Assembly (NCBI GenBank): GCA_903910645.1
Contig: CAIWAD010000113.1
Location: 45,564-109,563 of the forward strand
DNA length: 64,000 bases
Direction of reading: 5' to 3'
DNA from: an uncultured bacterium
GTDB taxonomy: Bacteria; CAIWAD01
Below are positions 4,599 through 24,460 of the stretch, in pieces. The notes under the pieces were generated by a model. The model did no database searches. It saw nothing but the letters and a program-made list of their open reading frames with translations, and was not told the origin of the DNA. The position numbers were made by a program, and so were the translations under genes. The stretch's first letter is position 1. Each line of letters begins with the position of its first letter.

Positions 4599-6116
4599 CT
4601 ACTGGTTCAGGTAGTTCAGGGCGTTGGTCAGCAGGCTCTTGGCGTAAGCCGGGTTGTGCACACCCATGCTGCCGTCGTTCTTCACGAAGAGGTAGCAATA
4701 CACCGCTTCGCGCCAGGCCGTGTTGGTCCACTCCGGATGGAGGACGGCGCTGGTGAAAGTGGTGCTGGACAGGGAGTCCGTGGGCACCGTGAAGCCAAAC
4801 TGAGCCGTGAAGTAATCTTCAATCTGGCCCATGAGGTTCGCCACTTCCGTCTGGCCACCCACGCCGTTCACACCACCGAAGTCGATGTCGAAGCTGGTGG
4901 CACCATTATGGCAGCTCTGGCAAGCCGTCAGGCTGGCTTCGAAGCTGTGGTCATGAATGGTGTAGCCGTGCGGGGCGCTGGCTTCCATGTGACAGGTCAC
5001 ACAGGGATCCGGCACATTGTTGTGCATGGCCGTGCGGTTGTAGGTGAAGCCCGGGATTTCGTAGGAGCCGGCACCCAGGAACATGTCCATCTGGGGGGAC
5101 TCGTGCGGGCCGCGCAGCAGGCTGAACACGCCGCTGGCGTTGGAGAACACCTGGTCGTTCACATTGGTGAGCGTACGACGGGCGTGGTGGCACTGGGCGC
5201 ACAGCTGGCTGTTGGCACGACCGGTGAAGGTGGTGGCGGTGCCGCCGGCCGGAACATAGACCGTGCTGTAGTCGGCAACGGTGCGCAGCTGGGCTTCGTT
5301 GGTGCCATTGTGCGGGTCGTGGCAAGTGACGCAGCCAACCTGATTCAGGGTGGCGCCGCTCACAGGCGTGGTGCCCGTGTAGTCCGGATCGTAAGCAGCC
5401 AGGAAGCCCTGGGTACCGTGACAGGTCCAGCAGCTGCCACTGTTCCACTCAGCCGAGTAGTCTTCAATGGTCACGCCGGGATTCTTGCCCAGGTGGTCGT
5501 GGGCGCCGCCCAGCCACTCTTCCATCTGGCCTTCATGGCAGGTGGCGCAAGCCGCGTCGTCGCCTTCCGCCGGGTTGGTGGCGAAGGAGATCTCGGGGCT
5601 GTGACCGTACAGGTTCGGGCCCATGCTGCTATGGCAGGACTCGCACTGCACACCCTGCAGGGCATGCAGACGGGCGGTGTCCGCCTCGTCGGCGGCCGGC
5701 CAGAAGTCGTCATAGCCACCGTCGAACATGCCATGGTCCGTGATGGTGGTGTCGCCGTAGGCCACGGGGGCGTCCCAGCCCAGCGTATGGCACTGCAGAC
5801 AGTAGGGATTGTTGGACTGGCCAGCAGCCTCCAGGGTGGCGAAGGCATTGGGATGGCCCGTGCCCGTCCACTCCGTCACCGTCTCCGAGTGACAGGTGTA
5901 GCAGGAGCTTCCATTGTTACCAACCCAGGCCCAGGCGTAAAGATCTTCGCCGTCCTGTCCATTCTGACCGTCCTGACCGTCCTGACCGTCCGCACCAGTC
6001 GGTCCTGCAGGTCCAATGGGGCCAGCGGGACCAACAGCTCCATCCTCGCCGGCACAGCCAACCAGCATGATGCCGGTCAGAACCATTGCAGGCAGCGGTC
6101 GAAGCCACTTCTTCAT
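4599..6116 (-). CDS. Multiheme (9x CXXCH) c-type cytochrome lipoprotein with an N-terminal collagen-like Gly-X-Y stalk
   Basis: Signal peptide with lipobox-like LVGC, 10 consecutive GXY triplets (GPAGPIGPAGPTGADGQDGQDGQNGQDGED), and nine CXXCH motifs. RBS GGAGG 7 nt upstream of the ATG at 6116. Confidence 0.85.
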   Translation of the reverse strand: MKKWLRPLPAMVLTGIMLVGCAGEDGAVGPAGPIGPAGPTGADGQDGQDGQNGQDGEDLYAWAWVGNNGSSCYTCHSETVTEWTGTGHPNAFATLEAAGQSNNPYCLQCHTLGWDAPVAYGDTTITDHGMFDGGYDDFWPAADEADTARLHALQGVQCESCHSSMGPNLYGHSPEISFATNPAEGDDAACATCHEGQMEEWLGGAHDHLGKNPGVTIEDYSAEWNSGSCWTCHGTQGFLAAYDPDYTGTTPVSGATLNQVGCVTCHDPHNGTNEAQLRTVADYSTVYVPAGGTATTFTGRANSQLCAQCHHARRTLTNVNDQVFSNASGVFSLLRGPHESPQMDMFLGAGSYEIPGFTYNRTAMHNNVPDPCVTCHMEASAPHGYTIHDHSFEASLTACQSCHNGATSFDIDFGGVNGVGGQTEVANLMGQIEDYFTAQFGFTVPTDSLSSTTFTSAVLHPEWTNTAWREAVYCYLFVKNDGSMGVHNPAYAKSLLTNALNYLNQ

Positions 6117-6416: not shown

Positions 6417-6941
6417 TCAGAAAGGCCAGAAGTTGTTGTCGTGCCAATATTCGGAACGCAACGACTCGTGCAGCTTGACCATGGTGCCGTAGTGCTCGTC
6501 CTCAAACTGGGCCAGCCACACCAGGATCTTCCTCAATTCAGCATCGTCCACCTTTTGGGCGGCCTTGGCATAGAAGTCCCGCGCCTCCTTCTCCAACACA
6601 ATGGCAATGTCCAGCGCCGTGGTATCGAAGTGGGTGGTGCCCAAGCTCTTCTTGAATGCTTCGCTCAGGATGGGATCGTGGATGTCGAAGGCGTGCTCCC
6701 GCCCGCTGCGCAGAATCTCTTCATTCCAGGTGGCCTTGTCCCGCCAGGTGCGGTACAATTCCGTAAGGATGCGCTTGTGATCCAGCTCTTCCTGGGCGAA
6801 TTCCTGGAAGAACTGGCGCGCCGTCTCGTTGGTGGTGCGCTCGGCGGTGGCCAGGTAGAATTCGTGGCCCCGGCTCTCCACCAGAATGGCGTATTTGAAA
6901 ATGTCTTCCACGGTCTTGAATTCGGGCTCTCGTCCGCTCAT
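6417..6941 (-). CDS. Rubrerythrin/ferritin-like diiron protein (no rubredoxin domain)
   Basis: Two EX(2)H motifs (EFAQEELDH, QFEDEHY) in a four-helix-bundle-like sequence. AAGGAG is 6 nt upstream of the second ATG. Confidence 0.6.
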   Translation of the reverse strand: MSGREPEFKTVEDIFKYAILVESRGHEFYLATAERTTNETARQFFQEFAQEELDHKRILTELYRTWRDKATWNEEILRSGREHAFDIHDPILSEAFKKSLGTTHFDTTALDIAIVLEKEARDFYAKAAQKVDDAELRKILVWLAQFEDEHYGTMVKLHESLRSEYWHDNNFWPF

Positions 6942-7175
6942 GGTCATCTCCTTATGATGGATGGGCGCCATGATAGGCAAATGGCGCTTGCCGCGAAAGT
7001 GCCCCCTGCCCCGCGCTTCACCTGTCAGGAAAAAAACCAGGTACCATTTTGGAACAATGGGGCAGGCATGCGAGTATGATGGCCCTGTCCCGGATGGGTC
7101 CACGGCTGTGGAACCACCCGCGCAGGCGCACACGGTCACAACCAATTTTCTCAAAGCTGTCGGAAAGGACATTTC

Positions 7176-7646
7176 ATGAAGAAGATCCTGGCCATCCTCA
7201 CCGGTGCCCTCGTGGTGTTCGCACTGGTTCAAAGCACTCCTGCCCTGGCCGGCGCCGGCTGCTGCCCCAAGGGCGAGAAGACCGCCAAGGCCTCCTCCTG
7301 CGGCGCCCCCGGTGCCGATGCCGCCCACGCCTCCAAGACCTGCACGGTGGACGGCAAAACCACCACCTGCACCATGAACGCCGATGGCAGCTGCAGTTTC
7401 CCCGCCGGCACGGTGGACCCCGCCACGGCCAAGGATGGCCTGAAGACCTGCGTGGTGGACGGCAAGACCGTCACCTGCAAGGTGAGCGCCGACGGCTCCT
7501 GCAGCATGAAGGGCGCCGAGGCTTGCCACGGTGCCGCCGCTGCCGCCAAGGGTTCCTGCTCCATGCCCTGCACCCCCGGCGCCGGCTGCCCGAGCAAGGC
7601 CGCCAAGGCCGTGAACAAGGATCCTTTCAAGGCCAGCGGCCTCTGA
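7176..7646 (+). CDS. Secreted Cys-rich protein (15 Cys) with a duplicated ~22-aa module
   Basis: Signal peptide MKKILAILTGALVVFALVQSTPALA. Repeats KTCTVDGKTTTCTMNADGSCSF and KTCVVDGKTVTCKVSADGSCSM, plus CC and C-x-C pairs. Confidence 0.6.
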   Translation: MKKILAILTGALVVFALVQSTPALAGAGCCPKGEKTAKASSCGAPGADAAHASKTCTVDGKTTTCTMNADGSCSFPAGTVDPATAKDGLKTCVVDGKTVTCKVSADGSCSMKGAEACHGAAAAAKGSCSMPCTPGAGCPSKAAKAVNKDPFKASGL

Positions 7647-7671
7647 TCCTCCGCCTTCAGCACCAATTGGA

Positions 7672-7700
7672 AGGGCCCGGCACCATGTCGGGCCCTTTCT
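7672..7700 (+). terminator. Rho-independent terminator after the Cys-rich protein gene
   Basis: AGGGCCCG-(9 nt loop)-CGGGCCCT followed by TTCT. Confidence 0.6.
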
Positions 7701-7852
7701 GCGCTATGGCGGTGCCATTTGTTTGATGAATGTCATGGATATTTCAGGGCCTGCTCATTATCATTATCGGCTCGGCGCTTGTCCTCAAGACCTCAGTCGC
7801 CTACGGAGCAAAGCGTTTCCGGTAGGCCGAAACCGAAGGCAGACAGAAGACC

Positions 7853-8449
7853 ATGCAGGCAGTTGACCGCTTCCTTCGCGTAGGTCTGCCGCTGACCGTC
7901 GTGAGCGTGCTCATCACGGTCATCCTGGTAGGCTGGAACACCCAACCGGACCGCTACCACATTGGTTATGCGCCGGAGCAGCCCATTCCCTACTCCCACA
8001 AGGTGCACGCCGGGGACAACCACATCCCTTGCGAGTACTGCCACACGGGAGCCCGCCAGGGACGACACGCCATGGTGCCGGCGGTGGAGGCCTGCTTCAA
8101 GTGCCACAACCTTACGCGCACGGACAGCCCGCACATCCAGCGCCTGAAGGCCGCCCTGGATGCCGGCCAGGCCTTCCCCTGGAAGCGCATCCACGACCTG
8201 CCCGACCATGTGTACTTCGACCATCGGCCCCATGTGGGCCTGGGCATCGCCTGCCAGGAATGCCACGGTCCAGTGGAGACCATGGAAGTGGTGGAGCAGG
8301 TGCTGAACATGCGCATGGGCGCCTGCCTTGAGTGCCATCGCGGCCAGCGCCAGTGGTCCACGCCCGTGCCCGCTCCCCGGGCGGACATGGTGCAGGTGGC
8401 TTCCGGCCACCCCACCGGCCCCACCAGTTGCAATGCCTGCCATCGTTGA
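7853..8449 (+). CDS. actA: Alternative Complex III pentaheme cytochrome c subunit
   Basis: N-terminal TM helix plus five CXXCH motifs (CEYCH, CFKCH, CQECH, CLECH, CNACH). First gene of the actABCDEF cluster. Confidence 0.85.
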   Translation: MQAVDRFLRVGLPLTVVSVLITVILVGWNTQPDRYHIGYAPEQPIPYSHKVHAGDNHIPCEYCHTGARQGRHAMVPAVEACFKCHNLTRTDSPHIQRLKAALDAGQAFPWKRIHDLPDHVYFDHRPHVGLGIACQECHGPVETMEVVEQVLNMRMGACLECHRGQRQWSTPVPAPRADMVQVASGHPTGPTSCNACHR

Positions 8450-8476
8450 CATGAACTTCCTGGAGGTTCCGTGCAG

Positions 8477-8674
8477 ATGACGCACACCACCCGGCGACAG
8501 GCCCTGGGAACCCTGGGAGGCCTGCTGGCCGCCCTGGCGCTCTTCCTGGTGCCCGGCTCCAGTGCCCTTGCGGCGCTGCGCAAGCCGGCCGCCACGCCGC
8601 GGACATCCGCTCCGGCCAAGGGCGAAGCGCCCGTGGTCCGGCCGCCCCAACATTCGGTGAGCCGCCATGGCTGA
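8477..8674 (+). CDS. Small (65 aa) putative Tat/Sec-signal protein between actA and actB
   Basis: GGAGG 9 nt upstream of the ATG at 8477. Sequence MTHTTRRQALGTLGGLLAALALFLVPGSSALAAL... has a twin-Arg motif plus a hydrophobic helix. Confidence 0.35.
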   Translation: MTHTTRRQALGTLGGLLAALALFLVPGSSALAALRKPAATPRTSAPAKGEAPVVRPPQHSVSRHG

Positions 8675-11753: not shown

Positions 11754-13125
11754 GGCCGTGCTGGCCGAGATCCGGCCCAAGCCCCTGGTGGTGGGGGAAG
11801 TCAGCCTGGGAGCCGTGGACGATGCCGTCTACGCCCCCATGGAATCCAAACCGCCCATGGTGTGGTGGGTGGCCCTGGCCTTCACCAGCGCCCTCATGCT
11901 CCTGGGCTTCGCCCTGATTGGCTACACGTTCTACGAAGGCATTGGCGTGTGGGGCAACAACGACCCGGTCTTTTGGGGCTGGGACATCACCAACTTCGTC
12001 TTCTGGGTGGGCATCGGCCACGCCGGAACCCTCATCAGCGCCGTGCTCTTCCTGTTCCGGCAGCGCTGGCGCAACGCCATTGCCCGCCTGGCGGAGGCCA
12101 TGACCATCTTCGCCGTGATGTGCGCGGCCATTTACCCCGCCATCCATGTGGGCAGGCCCTGGTTCGCCTTCTGGCTCTTCCCCTATCCCAACCAGCGCGG
12201 CATGTGGATCAATTTCAACAGCCCACTGGCCTGGGATGTCTTCGCGGTGAGCACCTACTTCACCGTCAGCCTCTTCTTCTGGTATGTGGGTCTTATCCCG
12301 GACCTGGCCAGCGCCCGGGACCGCGCCACGGGCAAGGTGCAGAAGGCCGTGTTCGGCGCCTTGAGCCTGGGCTGGCGCGGTGCCGCCCGGCACTGGACCC
12401 ACTATGAAAAGGCCTACATGATCCTGGCCGGCCTGGCCACGCCGCTGGTGCTCAGCGTGCACAGCATCGTGTCCTTCGACTTCGCCACCAGCGTCATCCC
12501 CGGCTGGCACACCACCATTTTCCCGCCTTACTTCGTGGCGGGCGCCGTGTTCAGCGGCTTCGCCATGGTGGTCACCGTGCTGGTCTTCGTGCGCAAGATC
12601 ATGCGCCTGGACCACCTCATCACCCTGGACCACATGGAAGTGATGAACAAGGTGATCCTTACCACGGGCTCCATTGTGGGTTACGCCTACGGCATGGAGT
12701 TCTTCATTGCCTGGTACGGCGGCGTGCCCGCCGAGCACTATGTCTTCATGAACCGCGCCACGGGCCCCTACGCCTGGGCCTACTGGACCATGGTCAGCTG
12801 CAACGTGATCTTCCCCCAGCTCTTCTGGTTCCGCAAGATCCGCCGCAGCATCGTGGCCATGTTCATCATTTCCATTTTTGTGAACATCGGCATGTGGTTC
12901 GAACGCTTCGTGATCATTGCCACCAGCCTGCACCGGGATTACCTGCCCAGCGCCTGGGGCTACTTCCGCCCCACACTGGTGGACATGGGCATCTTCGCCG
13001 GAACCTTCGGCCTTTTCTTCACCATGATCCTGCTCTTCAGCCGCACCCTGCCGGTGATTGCCACGGCGGAGCTGAAAGCGGTGCTTCCCGGCGCGCAGCC
13101 CGGCCATGGAGGTCATCATGAGTGA
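11743..13125 (+). CDS. actC: Alternative Complex III NrfD/PsrC-like membrane subunit
   Basis: Polytopic membrane protein of the NrfD family. GGAGG RBS, and it overlaps the actB stop. Confidence 0.9.
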
Positions 13126-14299
13126 TCGTCCCTTCCTGGTGCTGGGCCTGTTCCAGGACGCCGACAAGCTGGTCCACGGCATTCGTGCCCTGAAATCGAC
13201 CTACGGCGACAAGCTGGAAGCCTACACGCCCTATCCCATCCACGGGATCGAGAAGGAACTGGGCATTCCAAAATCCCATGTGGGGAAAATCGTCCTCGCC
13301 CTGGGATTGTCGGGCCTGACCCTGGCCCTGGGTTTCCAGAGCTGGGTGTTCACCACGGACTACCAGATCCAGTTCGGCGGCAAGCCCTACTTCAGTTGGG
13401 CCAGCTTCGTGCCCATTGTGTTTGAAGTGACCGTGCTGCTGGCCTGCATTGTGGGCGCCGTGTTCGGCATGCTGGTGTTGGTGAACAAGCTGCCGCACTA
13501 CTCGCACCCCATCCTGTCCAGCCGCAGCATGCCCAAGATCACGCGGGACCGCTTCGCCCTGGCGGTGAGCGTGGACACGGCGGAGGACGCCGCCCGCGCC
13601 GAGGCCGCCCTGCGCCAGGCCGGCGCGCCGGAAACAGAAGTGGTGCACGGCACGGACGAAATTGGATCCGGCCCCTTGCTGCCGCTGAAGCCCGTGCTGG
13701 CCACGGTGATCATCTGCGTGCTGGCGGGTCTGGGCACCTGGCACCTGCAGCGGTTATGGAACAAGCTGCCGCTCATCTCCATCATGGATGAGCAAACCAA
13801 GGTGCTGCCCTTCCGCGCCAACGCCTTCTACCCCGACGGCCAGTCCATGCGCCCGCTGGTGCCGGGCACCGTGTCGCGCAGCGCCGAGTACGCCGCCTGG
13901 ACCACGCCGGAGGAAGCCGGTCAAATGCTGGTCAACCCCCTGTCGGCGGACAGCCTGACTCTTGCCAAGGGTCGCCGGGGCTATGAAACCCATTGCCTGG
14001 TATGCCACGGCCAGTTGGGCGATGGCACGAAACTGCTGAGCGACAAATACACGGGCGCTCCCGCCAACCTGCACCAGGCACGCTTGAAGGAAGCCCCGGA
14101 CGGTCACCTGTTCGCGGTGGTCACCGCCGGCAAGAACACCATGGCCGGTTACGGCAAGGACATTCCCGCCGCCGACCGCTGGGCCATTGTGCACTATGTG
14201 CGCGTGCTGCAGCGGGCCCTGGACGCCAGCGACGCCGATGTCCAGGCGGCCCAGGCCGTGGCTGCGGCCGCGCCTGTTGCCCAGGGAGGAAGCCACTGA
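13118..14299 (+). CDS. actDE: Fused ActD (DUF3341 membrane subunit) and ActE (monoheme cytochrome c)
   Basis: N-terminal half is ActD-like ([25 protein letters not shown]...). C-terminal half carries the single CLVCHG heme motif typical of ActE. It is one continuous ORF. Confidence 0.8.
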
Positions 14300-23344: not shown

Positions 23345-24313
23345 TTACTTGCTCAACATGAGCTTCTGCGCCTGCTGGCGCCCCGCCGCCTCCAGCACCG
23401 CGATGTACACGCCGCTGGACCACTGGCTGCCATCCACCTGCACCTCGTGGGTGCCGGCTTCCACCAAACCCGTCACCAGGGTGGCCTGCAAGGCGCCCTT
23501 CAGGTCGTAGACCTTCAGGCTGGCCTCGCCCAGCTCATCCATGCTGTAGCGCAGCGTGCAGGAGGGGTTGAAGGGATTCGGGTAGGGATTGGACAGGGCG
23601 AAGGTGGTGGCCAGCTCGCCAGCGTCCACCATGTCGTTCACCTGGCAGATCACCGTGCCGTGGGAGCTGACGATGGAGCACTGGGTCTGGCCGCTGTGAT
23701 CGCCTTCAAAGGTCACCGTCACCGTGACGCTCTCGCCCTGGGCCAGTTCATAGCTCGCGGGGCTGACGCTGAAGGTGCCGCACTCTTCGCTGATGGTGCC
23801 GGCAAGGCTCGTGGGGCAGGTGCCGGTGGAGGTGTTGTGGATGGTGAAGCTGCGCGTCACGGGCCCCATCAGGTTCACCGTGCCGAAGTCCAGCAGCTCC
23901 GCATCCAGGGCCGTGCTTTCCACACAGGCGGGAGGCAGCACAACGACGGGTCCAAGCACGGTGGCGGCGTTGCCGTAGGCATCCAGGGCCGCCACGCGCA
24001 AGGTGTAAAGACCGGTCTCCCCTTCCGTCCAGCTCACCGCGTCCGAGAAAGCGAAGGCCGTGCCCAACACAATCTCATCCACGCTATCGTCCAGCGCCCA
24101 CACGGCACGCACGGCGCCGGGATGTGCATCCGCCGCCACCCAAGAGGCGGACAACAGGGCCGGGGTGTGTCCCAGGGTGGGGAAATCCACGCTGGTGAAT
24201 GTGGGCGGGGTTGTGTCCAGGACGCCCAGGGCACTGGTGCCGGACACCACTGCGGCGAACACCGCGGGGCCTACAGCCAGGCCTGCGCACAGAGCAAGCA
24301 GTCGACGCTTCAT
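23345..24313 (-). CDS. Secreted protein with a T9SS (Por) C-terminal sorting domain
   Basis: Signal peptide, and a C-terminal ~80 aa ending ...SNPYPNPFNPSCTLRYSM...KVYDLKGALQATL...GVYIAVLEA... typical of the T9SS CTD. It sits just upstream of the FGE-family gene in the same orientation. Confidence 0.7.
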   Translation of the reverse strand: MKRRLLALCAGLAVGPAVFAAVVSGTSALGVLDTTPPTFTSVDFPTLGHTPALLSASWVAADAHPGAVRAVWALDDSVDEIVLGTAFAFSDAVSWTEGETGLYTLRVAALDAYGNAATVLGPVVVLPPACVESTALDAELLDFGTVNLMGPVTRSFTIHNTSTGTCPTSLAGTISEECGTFSVSPASYELAQGESVTVTVTFEGDHSGQTQCSIVSSHGTVICQVNDMVDAGELATTFALSNPYPNPFNPSCTLRYSMDELGEASLKVYDLKGALQATLVTGLVEAGTHEVQVDGSQWSSGVYIAVLEAAGRQQAQKLMLSK

Positions 24314-24460
24314 GCCGATTCTCCTTCAAACGATGTTGTGCTTCACGGCCAAGGGCACCCGGCCGTTGGGGGGTCAACAGAGGCCTGGCCGATGACGACA
24401 CTCATCGTCACTTCACAAGTTCAGATTGAGGGGTTCTCGGCTTCAGGGCGCGAAAAGGAG

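Follow-up and report, generated by a model that had tools for sequence, protein, structure and literature searches.

The stretch of DNA analysed here, 64,000 nucleotides of contig CAIWAD010000113.1 from an uncultured bacterium and hereafter called the window, carries at positions 7176..7646 of the plus strand a coding sequence (ATG to TGA, 156 codons) for a small, predicted exported protein with 13 cysteines. A divergent gene for a rubrerythrin-like protein lies upstream, and downstream begins the operon for alternative complex III (ACIII) and a caa3-type haem-copper oxidase. The cysteines occupy positions 29, 30, 42, 56, 65, 73, 92, 101, 109, 117, 128, 132 and 138, leaving gaps of 0, 11, 13, 8, 7, 18, 8, 7, 7, 10, 3 and 5 residues. 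A preliminary description of this DNA had counted 15 cysteines, which was an overestimate, and had listed CC, C-x3-C and C-x-C spacings, of which the first two are present (C-x3-C as CSMPC) and the last does not occur among the 13 residues. It was correct that the 156 amino acid product begins with a signal peptide, the Sec-like N-terminus being read from the sequence, and that the mature part is rich in alanine, glycine, lysine and threonine; serine is also abundant in the 130 mature residues (A25 G16 K15 T13 S12).

Several measures indicate that the open reading frame (ORF) is a real gene under purifying selection. The ratio of non-synonymous to synonymous substitution rates (dN/dS, Nei-Gojobori) lies between 0.14 and 0.33 against the closer orthologues, and the G+C content at third codon positions (GC3) is 0.88, with about 63% G+C in the surrounding window. 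The ribosome binding site (RBS), GGAAAGGA (7162..7169, plus strand), stands 6 nt before the ATG, and GAAAGGA is found at the same distance in all orthologous loci. The dN/dS ratio stays below 1 even in distant pairs, where synonymous sites are saturated. ORFs that overlap the gene in other frames were dismissed as artefacts of high G+C content. The absence of a CXXCH motif and of a recognisable family, both noted in the preliminary description, held on closer inspection: CXXCH was not found in the protein, a Pfam scan at E ≤ 10 returned no family and an NCBIfam scan returned only NF033510 (Ca_tandemer), below threshold at 17.4 bits and E 0.004 against a curated cutoff of 50. No paralogue of the gene was found in the window, and an Rfam scan over its whole length yielded no riboswitch or RNA family.

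The two near-identical modules of some 22 residues pointed out previously represent an internal duplication. Module 1 (amino acids 54-75, KTCTVDGKTTTCTMNADGSCSF; 7335..7400, plus strand) contains C56, C65 and C73, and module 2 (amino acids 90-111, KTCVVDGKTVTCKVSADGSCSM; 7443..7508, plus strand) contains C92, C101 and C109; the two are identical at 16 of 22 residues and 51 of 66 nucleotides. Across the family, the module is 20 amino acids long, with its cysteines spaced C-x8-C-x7-C and the consensus K-T-C-V-V-D-G-K-T-V-T-C-T-V-N-A-D-G-S-C. In alignment A6, which includes the most distant members of the family, C56, D59, G60, C65, D70, G71 and C73 are invariant; the cysteine pattern is thus conserved in homologues, and the triad is, from these alignments, the most conserved part of the family. 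P0017, which stands outside A6 and for which the protein sequence only was available, has methionine in place of C56 and is the sole member with a broken triad in module 1.

The triad behaves as one unit, a set of three cysteines that appears from the comparison of members to be gained, lost and duplicated block-wise. P0020, P0045, P0046 and P0047 have a single module and P0016 has three; most members have two. In the subclade of P0009, P0018 and P0019, all three cysteines of module 2 have been exchanged, for V/I, A and L/M respectively, and the rest of the module (KVNADGS) is kept. This reversion to hydrophobic residues fits an arrangement with the three side chains on one buried face. AlphaFold2 predicts each module as a three-strand beta-meander at a predicted local distance difference test (pLDDT) score of 70-77, with strands at residues 53-58, 61-67 and 73-75 and at 89-94, 97-103 and 109-111, and no long helices. 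Block-wise loss, the presence of one to three copies and cysteine totals that may be odd or even are hard to reconcile with fixed disulfides between modules. A better fit would be a protein in which every triad, like every tail motif, forms a thiol or thiolate site of its own.

The origin of the module is suggested by its only relatives. When 1.8 billion proteins were searched with phmmer, matches outside the family were solely to Big_13 repeat proteins (E 8e-6 to 3e-4), and between a profile of 18 modules and one built from Big_13 repeats hhalign gave an alignment of 27 columns (91% probability, E 9e-7, 44% identity). The alignment places CTVDGKTTTCTMNADGSCSFPAGTV on VTVDGQTHTATNNGDGTWTLPGTSL, with the three cysteines at the V, A and W positions. 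In Big_13 these positions face the hydrophobic core of the immunoglobulin (Ig) domain, and the module probably has a Big_13-like origin, as a piece of an Ig-like repeat in which a triad of cysteines took the place of the core.

The signal peptide (amino acids 1-25, MKKILAILTGALVVFALVQSTPALA; 7176..7250, plus strand) is of the type used by the general secretion (Sec) pathway, with predicted cleavage at A-x-A|G. It is laid out as MKK, a hydrophobic core and then A-x-A|G-x-G-C, the site being ALA|G in the window protein. M1, K2, A23, A25, G26, G28 and C29 are invariant or nearly so throughout the family, and the signal peptide has no twin-arginine motif, reading KK and not RR. From this conserved signal, export to the periplasm via Sec is predicted. 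Cleavage by signal peptidase I (SPase I) and a soluble mature protein are favoured over a lipoprotein because the lipobox fails in three members (P0003, P0020 and P0046), where position -2 is proline; the A-x-A|G site of SPase I is universal. Compared with the lipobox [LVI][ASTVI][GAS]C, the window protein reads A-G-A-G-C29, with glycine rather than leucine, valine or isoleucine at position -3. Around the end of the signal peptide and the start of the mature protein, SPAFAADGCCSK of the PDB chain 7muc_AN, which is associated with the Legionella Dot/Icm system, resembles TPALAGAGCCPK; this likeness covers residues 14-76 of the window protein and is probably due to chance (E 0.11).

Outside the modules the family is far more variable. 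The N-terminal linker is short and rich in lysine and alanine, with one to three cysteines, and is much longer in P0020; in the window protein it opens with G-x-G-C-C. The C-terminal tail with its cysteines and histidines (amino acids 117-138, CHGAAAAAKGSCSMPCTPGAGC; 7524..7589, plus strand) is followed by a lysine-rich end. C117 and C128 are invariant in alignment A5, which omits the most distant members, and C128 alone is still invariant in A6. The remaining tail cysteines differ in number and place among members and have been gained and lost one at a time across the family. Recurring elements of the tail are CSMPC or CSKPC, CAPGC, C-x-P-G-S-C-H and ACxHEGDCTxACAP, the last of which is Cys3-His-like and occurs twice in P0047. 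The tail and everything else outside the modules is modelled at pLDDT below 50. Mature members contain 9-16 cysteines (7-11%), in odd as well as even counts, together with 0-2 aromatic residues and 13-20 lysines. The string C109-x7-C117-H118 lacks its histidine in P0005, P0007, P0008 and P0016, and a variant haem site (C-x7-CH or C-x4-CH) was rejected because the histidine is not conserved.

The family comprises about 18 clusters among some 15 billion proteins, none of them with a Pfam match; the searches covered a set of 5.8 billion clusters and a set of 1.84 billion representatives. All members are metagenomic, and the informative source names are limited to 'Candidatus Delongbacteria bacterium' and 'bacterium'; on this distribution, the family is restricted to one uncultured, Delongbacteria-like lineage. 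The exact window protein was found on 14 public contigs. When species-representative genomes were scanned for peptide patterns drawn from the family alignment, nothing was returned; two further copies in such genomes came to light beside ActA. Within the lineage, identity between members is 28-60%, as against 67-84% for ActA. No published description of the family was found in the literature.

The gene is predicted to be monocistronic, a transcription unit of its own separate from the act operon, because a conserved promoter-like element and a conserved terminator hairpin enclose it. The promoter-like element, GGAAC (7051-7055)-N17-AGTA (7073-7076), spans 7051..7076 on the plus strand, and its 3' end lies 100 nt before the ATG. 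GGAAC-N17-[ACT]GT[AT] recurs in 13 of 15 orthologous loci, 88-154 nt 5' of the start codon; the spacers within GGAAC-N17-nGT(A/T) are unrelated in sequence between loci, and the window holds exactly one copy of the element. It resembles the promoters of extracytoplasmic function (ECF) sigma factors of the E/H type, with which it shares its layout and which are tabulated as GGAACA-N16-(A/C)GTT, that is, with AGTT or CGTT (PMC10012870), and an ECF-sigma-type promoter is accordingly the prediction offered for it. It agrees with the arrangement expected of ECF-dependent genes, a -35 GGAAC and a -10 (C/A)GT(T/A) some 16-17 nt apart. A weak sigma70 reading of the same promoter, TGGAAC-16-GAGTAT, may also apply. 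The window yielded no gene for an ECF sigma factor. About 12 nt 5' of GGAAC lies an A-tract, GGAAAAAAACC (7028..7038, plus strand), which may act as a UP-like element; an A-rich block (AGGAGAAAAAC, AGATAAAAAC or AGAGAAAAAAC) has the same relative place in eight related loci (L001, L009, L013, L015, L019, L022, L024 and L025). At the other end of the gene, a hairpin resembling an intrinsic terminator (7669..7700, plus strand) consists of a GGGCCCG/CGGGCCC core followed by TTTCT. A simple scan missed it because the T-run is short. A GC-rich hairpin and a T-rich run follow the stop codon in each of the 12 loci inspected, with different sequences in the same position.

Two regulatory sites proposed in the preliminary description fared differently. 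The sigma54-like sequence TGGAAC-N5-GCGCA (7109-7124) is present, but it is kept only in a lineage that is 90% identical, and other GG/GC pairs near 7050 were rejected as a sigma54 site, their spacing being inconsistent between loci. The FNR-like site at 7723-7736 is both present and conserved; what did not stand is its reading as a half-site. It is a full FNR/CRP-like box, TTGAT-N4-GTCAT (TTGATGAATGTCAT), which together with a sigma70-like TGGATA-17-TATCAT (7736-7764) makes up the predicted act promoter (7723..7764, plus strand), and because of this location it is not considered to regulate the Cys-rich gene. The box stands 22 nt before the TATCAT -10 hexamer, with its centre about 41.5 bp 5' of the expected act start, and TTGA[TC]-N4-[AG]TCA is found 5' of ActA in 10 of 13 loci. 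This class II geometry (about -41.5) suggests oxygen-responsive control of the ACIII-caa3 operon by an FNR/CRP-type regulator.

The operon spans 7853 to about 21819 and opens with ActA (7853..8449, plus strand), a pentahaem protein with five CxxCH motifs that matches Pfam Cytochrome_C7. It continues with a 67 amino acid ORF, ActB, ActC, an ActD-cytochrome c fusion, ActF, a cytochrome c, SCO1 (with CPGVC), COX1, COX3, COX4, a caa3-type COX2 and CtaB; ActB, ActC, ActD, SCO1 and COX1-4 were assigned by Pfam. COX2 carries the CuA motif CAEYCGDQHSKM as well as CTTCH. That the Cys-rich gene co-occurs with such operons was borne out: ActA lies directly 3' of it in 13 of the 14 lineages in which the downstream side is known (the window, P0001-4, P0006, P0007, P0018, P0019, P0020, P0045, P0046 and P0047), and the position beside the ACIII-caa3/SCO1 operon and the rubrerythrin-like gene is kept across lineages whose proteins are some 30-60% identical. 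P0003 (locus L014) is counted here from position and shared act-promoter sequence, since its downstream ORF leaves the contig and has no Pfam match on record. P0020, among the most distant members, has polysaccharide genes upstream rather than rubrerythrin, and ActA downstream nonetheless. The exception is P0005 (locus L003), where an isocitrate dehydrogenase gene converges on the Cys-rich gene. A group II intron reverse transcriptase and AbiEii/DUF6922 genes were seen in L003 at 900-2200 and 12900-13800, which suggests that the region was rearranged via mobile elements. Some 70 ACIII loci of other phyla (Myxococcota, Acidobacteriota, Binatia, Gemmatimonadota, Elusimicrobia and others) were also inspected, and neither a homologue nor an analogous secreted Cys-rich ORF was present 5' of ActA. 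The gene is thus not needed for ACIII or caa3 oxidases in general, and from this comparison it is an addition that this lineage made to the locus rather than a component of ACIII at large.

Such close linkage would also be expected if the protein were an accessory periplasmic subunit of the ACIII-caa3 supercomplex that is peculiar to this lineage, or a partner in its assembly; a small disulfide-stabilised beta module, perhaps lipid-anchored through C29, would then dock on ActA, ActB or ActE. This explanation is thought unlikely. It can draw on the place directly 5' of ActA in 13 of 14 lineages, the distant P0020 included, and on the ACIII of Rhodothermus marinus, which has ActH and one unidentified periplasmic subunit besides (PMC5928083); but the P0005 lineage keeps the gene apart from ACIII, and the separate ECF-like promoter and strong terminator argue against stoichiometric co-expression with an act operon under FNR-type control. 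The low identity relative to ActA and the variable number of modules would be unusual for a fixed subunit of a complex. As to the anchor, most members can be read as having a relaxed lipobox in the invariant G-x-G-C that follows the signal, and the window includes a gene for signal peptidase II; against this stand the proline at -2 in three members and the universal A-x-A|G.

The upstream neighbour (6417..6938, minus strand) encodes a rubrerythrin-like protein of 173 amino acids, erythrin-like with a di-iron four-helix domain (Pfam Rubrerythrin, E 1e-13). In 13 of 15 lineages it is the divergent neighbour of the Cys-rich gene; P0009 and P0020 lack it there. The protein has neither a rubredoxin domain nor a signal peptide, and the NCBIfam model that it most resembles, below threshold, covers the N-terminal domain of MbfA, an iron exporter. 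The -10 element of its gene, TATCAT on the minus strand inside ATGATAGGCAA, is conserved across loci. A link to heavy-metal export through the resistance-nodulation-division (RND) pump at P0009 was rejected: with scores below all cutoffs, the pump comes closest to a generic multidrug RND protein.

With such a neighbour, the Cys-rich protein might buffer the thiol redox state of the periplasm or be sacrificed as a sink for oxidants. It would be ECF-induced when the microaerophile meets oxygen or oxidants, and would pair with the divergent cytoplasmic rubrerythrin-like peroxidase in the manner of methionine-rich periplasmic sink peptides. The frequency of the rubrerythrin-like neighbour, which is found even at P0005 where ACIII is not adjacent, would be explained, as would a promoter of the kind used by sigma E/H stress regulons and disordered, low-complexity tails with many exposed cysteines in variable number. 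Members that have lost the second triad are also richer in methionine (6 in P0009, 8 in P0018). A generic sink, however, needs no structured module with three invariant cysteines and invariant DG and ADG turns. The rubrerythrin-like protein, being without a signal peptide, belongs to a different compartment and is missing as a neighbour at P0020 and P0009, and the immediate locus holds no MsrP-, DsbD- or thioredoxin-like reductase for recycling. This interpretation is accordingly held to be improbable, though not to the degree of the next.

A periplasmic carrier of a new kind, equipped with a Cu-thiolate or some other redox centre and moving electrons out of ACIII and on to the oxidase or a different acceptor, would take the role that auracyanin, iron-sulfur protein of the high-potential type (HiPIP) or soluble cytochrome c has with ACIII elsewhere. 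ACIII is able to reduce soluble periplasmic HiPIP and cytochrome c (PMC5928083), the gene sits just before the act operon and its product is predicted to be small, soluble and exported. This role is nevertheless regarded as very improbable: there is no CXXCH, the C-x7-CH string is not conserved, the His2-Cys-Met ligand set of cupredoxins is absent with no conserved histidine, and a Sec-type signal argues against a pre-assembled Fe-S cofactor. The operon already supplies ActE-like and COX2-fused cytochrome c domains for direct transfer, and variable module number and ECF-type regulation are ill suited to a core respiratory carrier. An exported Fe-S protein of HiPIP type was rejected on its own account, the MKK signal being without RR and Pfam without a match. 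Of the roles suggested in the preliminary description, metal binding or redox buffering is compatible with all that was seen in the sequences, and a part for Fe-S is unlikely because export is of the Sec rather than the Tat type.

The interpretation preferred here, to which a probability of roughly 35% is assigned, is that the Cys-rich protein is a periplasmic thiolate metal binder or donor, for Cu, serving the oxidase locus. The Sec-type signal would send a small, fast-evolving protein to the periplasm, where the triad and tail cysteines would remain in the reduced state and use their thiolates to bind a soft metal, Cu(I) being the most plausible. Expression would be switched on by a sigma factor responding to envelope stress or to metal or oxidant stress, and the protein would serve as a periplasmic copper buffer or donor, holding copper for, or keeping its excess from, the haem-copper oxidase (CuA/CuB) and its SCO1 chaperone. 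Its role would be akin to that of PCuAC, Csp1 or metallothioneins elsewhere, and functionally to that of CueP also; to Csp1, PCuAC and CueP it is unrelated.

This proposal rests first on the protein itself. The triad is the conserved core and is lost or copied as a unit, and the single replacement of a module 1 cysteine, in P0017, is by methionine, which is another soft-metal ligand. Odd cysteine counts and the gain or loss of single tail cysteines are like those of metallothioneins and unlike a fixed disulfide framework; the composition (7-11% cysteine, 0-2 aromatic residues, lysine-rich) is likewise metallothionein-like, and the ACxHEGDCTxACAP element of the tail, doubled in P0047, is Cys3-His-like. 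The locus contributes further evidence. ActA to SCO1 and COX1 follow directly downstream in 13 of 14 lineages, distant P0020 again included, and the operon contains SCO1 with CPGVC and a CuA-type COX2. A PCuAC-type motif, H(M)x10Mx21HxM, was found by regular expression in no ORF of the window, and the ECF-type promoter is conserved at 13 of 15 loci. Periplasmic copper proteins based on cysteine have precedents in Csp1, CueP and Sco1 (PMC7558416).

A number of points weigh against the proposed copper role. The protein matches no known metal-binding family or fold. Methionine and histidine are the commoner ligands of periplasmic Cu(I) sites, and periplasmic cysteines are usually oxidised to disulfides. 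In a flat three-strand sheet, as modelled, the three cysteines may be too far apart for one trigonal site, and the core of the module reaches a pLDDT of only about 70-77. The gene's own promoter and terminator mean that it is not co-transcribed with the oxidase genes, P0005 lacks an adjacent ACIII and the ACIII loci of other phyla have no equivalent ORF. Synteny inside one lineage may simply have been inherited.

In a more specific proposal the triad half-Ig module would be a metal-thiolate fold not seen before. Two or three meanders, or a dimer of single-module proteins, would lie face to face with at least six cysteines in place of the hydrophobic core, surrounding a polynuclear Cu(I)-thiolate cluster, and the protein would be a stress-inducible copper store or donor dedicated to ACIII-caa3 in a lineage without PCuAC. 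It is put forward as a long shot, and if true would represent a new copper-supply route to a haem-copper oxidase. The weight that the readings set out above leave over belongs to something else.

Further features of the region were noted apart from the Cys-rich gene. On the minus strand at 4599-6116 is a gene for a lipoprotein of 505 amino acids (lipobox LVGC) with an N-terminal collagen-like G-X-Y repeat (Pfam Collagen, E 8e-7) and nine CxxCH motifs, a multihaem cytochrome on a collagen-like tether; in related loci it adjoins the rubrerythrin-like gene, and it is duplicated in L107. The 67 amino acid ORF between ActA and ActB (8471-8674, plus strand) has one hydrophobic helix and no Pfam match, overlaps the start of ActB and may be a small unrecognised subunit of ACIII; ORFs of 59-65 amino acids are called in the equivalent place in every related locus except L025. 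The 397 amino acid fusion at 13106-14299 (plus strand) joins ActD (PF11821) to an ActE-like monohaem cytochrome c domain and is called in all related loci. At 23345-24322 (minus strand) a gene encodes a protein that combines an Ig-like domain with a C-terminal sorting domain for type IX secretion (Por_Secre_tail), which indicates that the organism has a type IX secretion system, as in lineages of the Fibrobacteres-Chlorobi-Bacteroidetes (FCB) type. In a related locus (L001, 1-2527), an ATP-grasp (ATPgrasp_Ter) and PqqD pair with two small ORFs was seen about 8 kb upstream and has the appearance of a gene set for a ribosomally synthesised and post-translationally modified peptide (RiPP). The Cys-rich protein was rejected as a RiPP precursor: its signal peptide is classical and unrelated operons stand between it and the ATP-grasp/PqqD pair.

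If metal is bound, the family would represent a new structural solution to the handling of copper, or another soft metal, in the periplasm, and a lineage-specific accessory factor in the little-studied biogenesis of ACIII-caa3 in uncultured microaerophiles. Whatever its function, it offers a clean case of block-wise gain, loss and duplication in a conserved unit of three cysteines, and of two separated regulatory inputs, an ECF-type promoter for the Cys-rich gene and an FNR-type box for the act operon. With about 18 clusters in some 15 billion proteins and no cultured host known, practical impact is modest.

Among known systems, the subunit ActH of Rhodothermus marinus ACIII is likewise a small periplasmic protein, peripheral in its complex, with homologues confined to close relatives (PMC5928083). 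It is all alpha-helical and was found in the purified complex, whereas the window protein is predicted to be of beta structure with disordered parts; no Pfam Act family showed homology to it.

Big_13 (PF19077) is the nearest relative of the module in sequence, its 27-residue core VTVNGKTYTATNNGDGTWTLPAGTI aligning with CTVDGKTTTCTMNADGSCSFPAGTV of the window protein. The core motif of strands B, C and C', V-x-V-(N/D)G-K/Q-x-x-x-A-T-x-N-x-DG-T-W-T-L-P, is reproduced with cysteine for V, A and W. Compared with the adhesin-like surface proteins in which Big_13 occurs, only three of about seven Ig strands are present and the full Pfam model of some 100 residues is unmatched; members of the family are 130-200 amino acids long, whereas Big_13 adhesins are giant.

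PCuAC (PccA; PF04314) is a soluble periplasmic beta-protein that gives copper to Sco1 or COX2, and genes for factors of this sort often stand beside oxidase operons (PMC7558416). Its ligands are the methionines and histidines of H(M)x10Mx21HxM in a single globular domain, whereas the window protein is Cys-based, without that motif or a match to the Pfam family. With bacterial and eukaryotic metallothioneins the window protein shares a high cysteine content, a near absence of aromatic residues, low complexity rich in lysine, alanine, serine and glycine, and a variable number of cysteines. Metallothioneins are cytosolic and without a conserved beta-module, and no metallothionein family of Pfam or NCBIfam is matched by the window protein.

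The family is itself undescribed, though small exported Cys-rich metal or redox proteins are already known as a kind, and Csp1 of Methylosinus trichosporium, which is small and exported, has about 13 cysteines per chain and is believed to store Cu(I) on behalf of a copper enzyme of the membrane (PMC7558416), is one of them. No sequence or fold similarity to Csp1 was detected, and the window protein falls outside the Csp family (Csp1/Csp3). Csp1 is exported by the Tat pathway and forms a four-helix bundle lined with cysteines, whereas the window protein has a Sec-type signal, predicted beta-meanders and disordered tails. Csp1 nonetheless provides the closest analogy for the mode of working proposed here, both proteins being small, exported and Cys-rich with few other ligands.

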